A stretch of 32,000 nt of DNA from Pseudomonas aeruginosa (GTDB lineage Bacteria; Pseudomonadota; Gammaproteobacteria; Pseudomonadales; Pseudomonadaceae), in NCBI RefSeq assembly GCF_001457615.1, contig NZ_LN831024.1:2310001-2342000 (forward strand), in the 5' to 3' direction. Under the pieces are notes generated by a model. It was not told the origin of the DNA. It was given only the letters and a program-made list of their open reading frames with translations, and searched no databases. Shown here piece after piece: positions 27,297-28,000 of the stretch. The position numbers were made by a program, and so were the translations under genes. The number at the start of each line of letters is the position of its first letter. Position 1 is the first letter of the stretch.

Positions 27297-28000
27297 ATGC
27301 GCGCCCGCGGCGTGAACTGGATCGAACGTAGTGCCCGAATCCTGGCTTGCGCCAGCCTCGCATTGGCACCCACGCTGTCCCTGGCGGCCAGTGAAGAAGA
27401 CCCTTGGGAAAGCATCAACCGTCCCATCTTCACCTTCAACGACACCCTGGACACCTATGCGCTGAAACCGCTGGCCCAGGGTTACCAGAAGGTCACCCCG
27501 AACTTCGTTCAGGACGGCGTGCACAACTTCTTCAACAACCTCGGCGACGTGAAGAACCTGGCCAACAACCTGTTGCAGGCCAAGTTCCACAATGCCGGCG
27601 TGGACACCAGCCGCCTGCTGTTCAACAGCACCTTCGGCCTGGCCGGCTTGATCGACGTGGCGACCCGATGGGCCTGCAGCGCAACGATGAGGACTTCGGC
27701 CAGACCCTGGGTTATTGGGGCGTCGGCAGCGGCCCGTACGTGATGCTGCCGTTCCTCGGCCCGAGCACGCTGCGCGATGCCCCGGCGAAGATCCCGGACA
27801 TCTATGTCAGTCCCTACCACTACATGGACGACGTACGCGCGCGCAACGTGATGTTCGGCATCAATACCGTCGACACCCGTGCCAACCTGCTGAAGTCGGA
27901 AAAACTGATCAGCGGCGACAAGTACATCTTCATCCGCAACGCCTACCTGCAGAACCGCGAGTTCAAGGTCAAGGACGGCGAGGTGGAGGACGACTTCTAA
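27297..28000 (+). pseudogene. mlaA: mlaA/vacJ outer-membrane lipoprotein gene interrupted by a net -1 frameshift near 27666-27668
   Basis: The N-terminal half is in the frame of ORF 27297..27743 (AAGGAG RBS, lipobox ILAC, conserved through GLAGLIDVATR). The C-terminal half is in the frame of ORF 27404..28000 (MGLQRNDEDFGQTLGYWGVGSGPYVMLPFLGPSTLRD... to the end). 704 nt is not a multiple of 3. The first frame stops at TGA 27741-27743. Confidence 0.85.

Follow-up and report, generated by a model that had tools for sequence, protein, structure and literature searches.

Whether the interrupted mlaA (vacJ) gene of one Pseudomonas aeruginosa genome record reflects a loss in the organism or a fault in the record is the question raised by this locus. 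The window (the whole 32,000-nt stretch of DNA that was analysed) comes from a record that we take to be NCTC10332 (LN831024). Within it, an open reading frame with an ATG start (27297..27743, forward strand) encodes a 148-aa product that ends at TGA 27741-27743 and matches positions 2-95 of the 195 in the Pfam MlaA domain PF04333 (E = 8.7e-39). A second frame, running from ATG 27668 to TAA 27998-28000, encodes 110 aa that match positions 93-194 of the same 195 (E = 9.3e-34), such that the two halves together span the whole domain, a full-length match to the MlaA/VacJ family; both halves also match the NCBIfam enterobacterial MlaA equivalog PRK15091 partially, as expected for a non-enterobacterial clade. 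Because the two half-matches lie in different frames, the window gene is a single MlaA coding sequence interrupted by a net −1 shift at the junction, as the first-pass annotation had proposed from the letters alone; as written, the window contains no uninterrupted ORF for the whole protein, the break falling at 27664-27666. The ribosome-binding site and N-terminal half that had been placed in frame 1 were both recovered, as was the C-terminal half that had been read in frame 2 from ATG 27668 to 28000. This C-terminal ORF has neither a signal peptide of its own nor a Shine-Dalgarno sequence 5' of its ATG, and consensus scans of 27150..28120 for promoters and terminators returned no matches. The features of the locus are listed here.

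27243, forward strand: lineage-marker SNP, C where most haplotypes have G, 54 nt 5' of the mlaA start; it marks same-lineage assemblies.
27283..27288, forward strand: Shine-Dalgarno-like AAGGAG, read from the sequence, 8 nt 5' of the mlaA start codon.
27297..27665, forward strand: mlaA codons 1-123 in the native frame (PF04333 positions 2-95), equal to residues 1-123 of PAO1 PA2800.
Within 27297..27665, forward strand: predicted signal peptide, residues 1-31, with SPase I-type cleavage after LAA, from signal-peptide comparison.
27664..27666, forward strand: run of three C (C3) and site of the 1-nt deletion, from locus comparison; intact alleles have four (C4; ACC CCG, Thr123-Pro124).
27666..27743, forward strand: out-of-frame tail of the 148-aa product (RWACSATMRTSARPWVIGASAAART) and TGA stop.
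27668..28000, forward strand: mlaA codons 125-234 and TAA, in the −1 frame relative to the start (PF04333 positions 93-194), equal to residues 125-234 of PA2800.

DNA alignments narrowed the lesion to a four-C run that is one base short, intact alleles reading ACC CCG ATG where the window reads ACC CG ATG. Native sequence extends through Thr123 (codon ACC, 27663-27665), the 148-aa product is made up of 123 native and 25 aberrant residues (R124 plus 24), and the downstream ORF begins exactly at Met125. The stop of the aberrant tail had been placed correctly at 27741-27743, but the tail itself, previously counted as 24 residues, is 25 residues long. The lost base had also been assigned to an Arg codon; it belongs instead to the C4 run over Thr123-Pro124, and Arg is found at this position in some other Pseudomonas. 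Intact P. aeruginosa MlaA proteins in the public collection read ...GLIDVATPMGLQRNDEDFG... across the junction, where Pro124 (CCG in every intact P. aeruginosa allele) links the halves. When one C was restored, the result was a 234-aa protein identical to PAO1 PA2800 (UniProt Q9I043), which was found on at least 1,000 contigs.

The repaired protein was also aligned to solved MlaA structures (5NUO, 5NUQ and 8I8R), with residues 33-229 aligning at an E value of about 3e-31 and colinearly over the junction. Compared with the solved proteins (PDB 5NUO/5NUP/5NUR, 5NUQ and 8I8R/8I8X), the 148-aa product would be missing the half whose alignment starts at about chain residue 105. The split is not a chance pattern: both parts align colinearly with MlaA proteins of known structure, and one base is all that separates them from PA2800. 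Gene identity as mlaA/vacJ, the PA2800 orthologue, was secured by the Pfam matches, by the identity of the repaired protein to Q9I043 and by synteny: the window shares with PAO1 the neighbourhood of tal, rssC, rssB, a pilZ-domain gene, mlaA, a thioesterase, a GntR regulator, a HAD phosphatase and an HD oxygenase, and neighbouring genes match the PAO1 proteins Q9I039, Q9I042, Q9I044, Q9I046 and TAL_PSEAE. In this gene the window departs from PAO1 at codons 123-124, where C3 in place of C4 breaks the ORF in two.

A lipoprotein signal (lipobox ILAC) had previously been read at the N terminus, and this assignment now appears doubtful, the closest homologues (LLAGAS, LFAAAG, CLSAS...) having Gly, Ala or Ser in place of Cys18. 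Conserved instead in Pseudomonas MlaA is an A-x-A site directly before (A)S/T-E-D/E-D-P-W; across the genus, AQA↓AS(E/D)DPW is maintained and Cys18 is not. The lipoprotein signal with a lipobox Cys that E. coli MlaA carries was not recognized in the window gene, the N terminus of which (27297-27410, residues 1-37; ...SLAA↓SEEDPW) looks like an SPase I signal and not a lipoprotein signal, judging from its sequence. The lipobox is not a defining feature of the Pseudomonas/Neisseria MlaA clade. In agreement with the SPase I-like reading, SPase I-cleaved and lipoprotein-type MlaA homologues form separate clusters in a review, with the enterobacterial proteins being lipobox-bearing lipoproteins and those of Pseudomonas carrying an SPase I-like signal (PMC11131202).

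To what extent is the shortened tract shared with other genomes? Read directly, the tract was C4 in 25 other P. aeruginosa loci of many haplotypes (L086-L093 and L099-L115), C5 in five and C3 in the window only, and a look-up of the 205-aa CopI product returned unrelated haplotypes, every one of them C4. Among about 15 billion proteins, the C3-specific 148-aa product occurred on one contig only (6,316,979 bp, P. aeruginosa; CKH25709.1); an index of 153 billion gene positions held no gene with this product, and a metagenome pattern scan that admitted 3-5 bases at the tract recovered 4-base alleles only, in other lineages. A literature search turned up no specific account of a natural P. aeruginosa mlaA frameshift. 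Beyond the species, a single colinear mlaA was found by tblastn in all of the best 80 Pseudomonas species representatives. At the codon equivalent to 124, 78 other Pseudomonas species (L001-L080) had AAG/AAA (Lys), CAC (His), CGC (Arg) or CAG (Gln), and residue 124 was Pro in P. aeruginosa only; since the other species carry those codons, the C4 run, as read from these sequences, is peculiar to P. aeruginosa and residue 124 lies at a variable position.

A search for sister assemblies used the exact alleles of eight flanking genes and then of nine further genes. All but one of these alleles were common (at least 1,000 contigs) and hence uninformative. The exception was the gene for a transglutaminase-like protein (window 16908..17579), the rare allele of which was shared by 38 contigs, among them that of the window record itself (CKH25169.1) and one of 6,317,050 bp taken as the PacBio assembly of type strain DSM 50071T (PMC4543509). 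The two records fit a picture of one strain assembled twice from long reads, with a length difference of 71 bp, and the CKH accession series, together with the rare allele held in common with DSM 50071T, suggests that the window record was assembled from long reads only and represents the type strain of the species as kept in another collection.

Close relatives of the window carried an intact gene. A contig from a JGI metagenome (3300045367, Ga0493810_06072; L097 and L113) aligned to window positions 11170..29102 (17.9 kb) with 0 mismatches and one gap, the missing C, such that this independent assembly equals the window over 17.9 kb apart from one base; its L113 portion alone, reached through a 108-aa DUF4404 product with an alternative start, called by some pipelines only, covered 19777..29102 (9.3 kb) with 0 mismatches and the same single gap. 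Over 16.4 kb, L097 and L098 (ENA ERZ28589904) both matched the window at 100.000% identity, and in both mlaA was called at 234 aa. Another locus, L094, differed by 18 SNPs over 20.7 kb (17 upstream of 10681 and one, at 15556, between 10681 and 27579), and its mlaA was also called at 234 aa. The flanks first retrieved (10 kb; L094, L097 and L098) end 85 nt short of the tract, and intactness there refers to the called 234-aa product. L097 and L098 end inside an exactly duplicated 78-nt tRNA (11026-11103 and 11186-11263), as expected of independent short-read assemblies. The lineage-marker C at 27243 was also present in L094, L097/L113, L098, L103, L105 and L114, all with intact mlaA, as judged from the C4 tract itself in L103, L105, L113 and L114 and from a called 234-aa product in L094, L097 and L098. 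The deletion is private to the window's genome record: it lies on one contig, and it is the one gap in 17.9 kb of alignment to an independent assembly that lacks it. The SNPs at 27243 (C) and 25546 (A) are rare among the compared haplotypes and mark the window's lineage, the former lying in the intergenic region common to mlaA and the divergent thioesterase gene.

The same homopolymer also varies in the other direction. In five loci (L081-L085), a C5 allele (+1) encodes a 131-aa fragment and a 110-aa product, resembling the window in its N-terminal fragment plus orphan 110-aa ORF but arising by insertion where the window has a deletion. The C5 sources comprise SRR24707169 and SRR34268887 (Logan/SRA short-read), GCA_031847995.1 and GCA_031847875.1 (NCBI drafts) and LR590473.1 (NCTC long-read); the 110-aa product was present in 57 index blocks, and C5 occurred on at least two local haplotypes. 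Because several independent short-read and NCBI draft assemblies carry it, C5 is a real, naturally circulating mlaA-null allele, and natural mlaA-null P. aeruginosa therefore exist, which makes C5 more interesting than the window's own lesion.

Two further indels were observed in passing. At the equivalent of 25485, LR590473.1 (L083) has a private extra C (CAGCCGGG to CAGCCCGGG) that was absent from all other loci compared. This insertion divides a 247-aa HAD-phosphatase gene resembling PA2803 into ORFs of 106 and 109 aa and probably stems from a long-read consensus error in that record. A third independent mlaA frameshift was present on a 5.6-kb Logan contig (P0002), as a −1 in the G4 run of ...GYWGVG... 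(equivalent of 27717-27720) with an L16P change alongside and a product that is likewise 148 aa; this contig may derive from a low-quality read set.

How much the loss of mlaA would matter depends on its function. The PA2800 protein removes phospholipids from the outer leaflet and transfers them to MlaC (PMC10374164). Guest et al. (2023) found that mlaA or mlaZ single mutants were like wild type, MlaZ/MlaY (PA3239/PA3238) being redundant with MlaA, and that only the mlaA mlaZ double mutant was sensitive to SDS/EDTA and doxycycline and overproduced pyocyanin (PMC10374164). The strong phenotype earlier ascribed to mlaA loss was in this light overstated, and because MlaYZ backs up MlaA in P. aeruginosa, the phenotype of a real loss should be mild. 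Loss-of-function mutations in vacJ (Q136* and T50P) arise readily under ceftazidime selection (PMC10187892). Taken literally, the window would encode a secreted 148-aa fragment (123 native residues followed by 25 of junk) without half of the ring-shaped channel that MlaA forms, and the C-terminal half would remain untranslated or cytoplasmic. The allele, if the deletion is real, would be null, since the fragment lacks about half of the channel and the C-terminal half comes with neither a ribosome-binding site nor a signal peptide.

The first-pass annotation had left two origins side by side, a strain-specific allele or an assembly indel. The restriction of the deletion to a single record favours assembly error. 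The errors left in an unpolished PacBio RS II consensus are typically one-base deletions from G/C homopolymers. We consider a residual homopolymer error in the consensus of a long-read-only assembly the most likely origin, with somewhat better than even confidence; we infer that base-calling or consensus, and not the cells, was the source of the missing C, and the organism itself probably has an intact mlaA. Several observations support this: a single restored base yields a protein known from at least 1,000 contigs, C4 is the state in 25 loci of many haplotypes, the metagenome contig departs from the window by this base only, L098 and L094 both have a 234-aa mlaA, the 148-aa product is confined to one contig among about 15 billion proteins, the record shares its rare transglutaminase-like allele with the PacBio genome of DSM 50071T, and a sister NCTC long-read assembly (LR590473.1) has a private +1 C in the neighbouring HAD-phosphatase gene. 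The lesion also resembles the residual indels of unpolished PacBio RS II/HGAP assemblies in being a one-base G/C-run deletion that creates an apparent pseudogene seen in no other assembly of the lineage, although the run affected here, at only 4 nt, is short for an error of that kind. Weighing further against consensus error, no second indel separates the window from same-lineage assemblies over 17.9 kb, such that the assembly is not generally sloppy here; the existence of a real C5 allele in short-read and NCBI draft assemblies of other isolates indicates that the tract is mutable in vivo; and vacJ loss-of-function mutations have been selected in the laboratory under ceftazidime.

These same points lend some credit to a real loss-of-function mutation private to this stock, which we regard as possible though doubtful. 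Replication slippage could have removed one C in culture, for example over decades of collection passage, leaving a stock without functional MlaA that depends on MlaYZ. The occurrence of C5 on at least two haplotypes and in 57 index blocks shows that the tract changes in nature, selection in vitro yields null and missense mutations of vacJ, the near-neutrality of an mlaA single mutant under MlaYZ redundancy means that loss is tolerated, and the assembly is otherwise error-free over 17.9 kb. Yet the deletion was absent from all other assemblies compared, including three of the same local haplotype, and the C3-specific product was found on one contig only and in none of the Logan (SRA-read) assemblies; in an unpolished long-read genome, moreover, residual consensus indels would be expected a priori to outnumber true private indels. 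A broader version, in which the P. aeruginosa-specific C4 run is a recurrent indel hotspot, MlaA is repeatedly lost in nature and culture and the stock is truly mlaA-null, seems unlikely; were it true, loss would be tolerated through MlaYZ redundancy and may be favoured under beta-lactam or envelope stress. Two further readings were rejected. Contingency loci have tracts of about 7 nt or more and frequent length variation within populations. A phase-variable switch in which C3, C4 and C5 interconvert could point to the presence of all three lengths in public data, but it is very improbable given a four-base tract far shorter than those giving high-frequency switching (about 7 or more), the dominance of C4 (at least 1,000 contigs, versus 57 blocks with the 110-aa marker of C5 and one record with C3) and the absence of the tract from other Pseudomonas species (AAG, CAC or CGC codons). 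A programmed −1 ribosomal frameshift, or a functional two-piece MlaA, has nothing in its favour beyond the overlap of the two frames and is scarcely credible: the gene is a single colinear ORF in 25 intact P. aeruginosa loci and in 80 of the best 80 species representatives, GCG ACC CGA TGG contains no X XXY YYZ slippery heptamer, and a C-terminal half with neither signal peptide nor ribosome-binding site would be unable to reach the outer membrane.

Neither origin implies new biology: the gene is a known one, and its private loss of one homopolymer base is probably artefactual. On the preferred reading of consensus error, the matter is one of data quality only. The window record appears to be the representative of this species in GTDB; if so, it would show mlaA wrongly as a pseudogene, and a false pseudogene in a representative can mislead pangenome, core-genome and essentiality analyses. 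If the mutation is instead real, one type-strain collection stock is without the canonical Mla outer-membrane component, a stock-private loss that would be relevant to envelope or antibiotic work with that stock, with a mild phenotype expected through MlaYZ.

Elsewhere in the window, annotation pipelines differ on the start codons of the CopI cupredoxin gene (22645-23262; 181, 186, 205 or 251 aa) and of the DUF4404 gene (24277-24603; 87 or 108 aa), and these start-codon variants served as handles for the exact-product look-ups. Three tRNA genes are clustered at 10948-11263, among them the two exact 78-nt copies, which are probably tRNA-Gly(GCC) as read from the anticodon loop CTTGCCAAG. Two of the compared loci (L095 and L096) have different gene content upstream of this cluster, and the cluster is likely the boundary of a region of genome plasticity.
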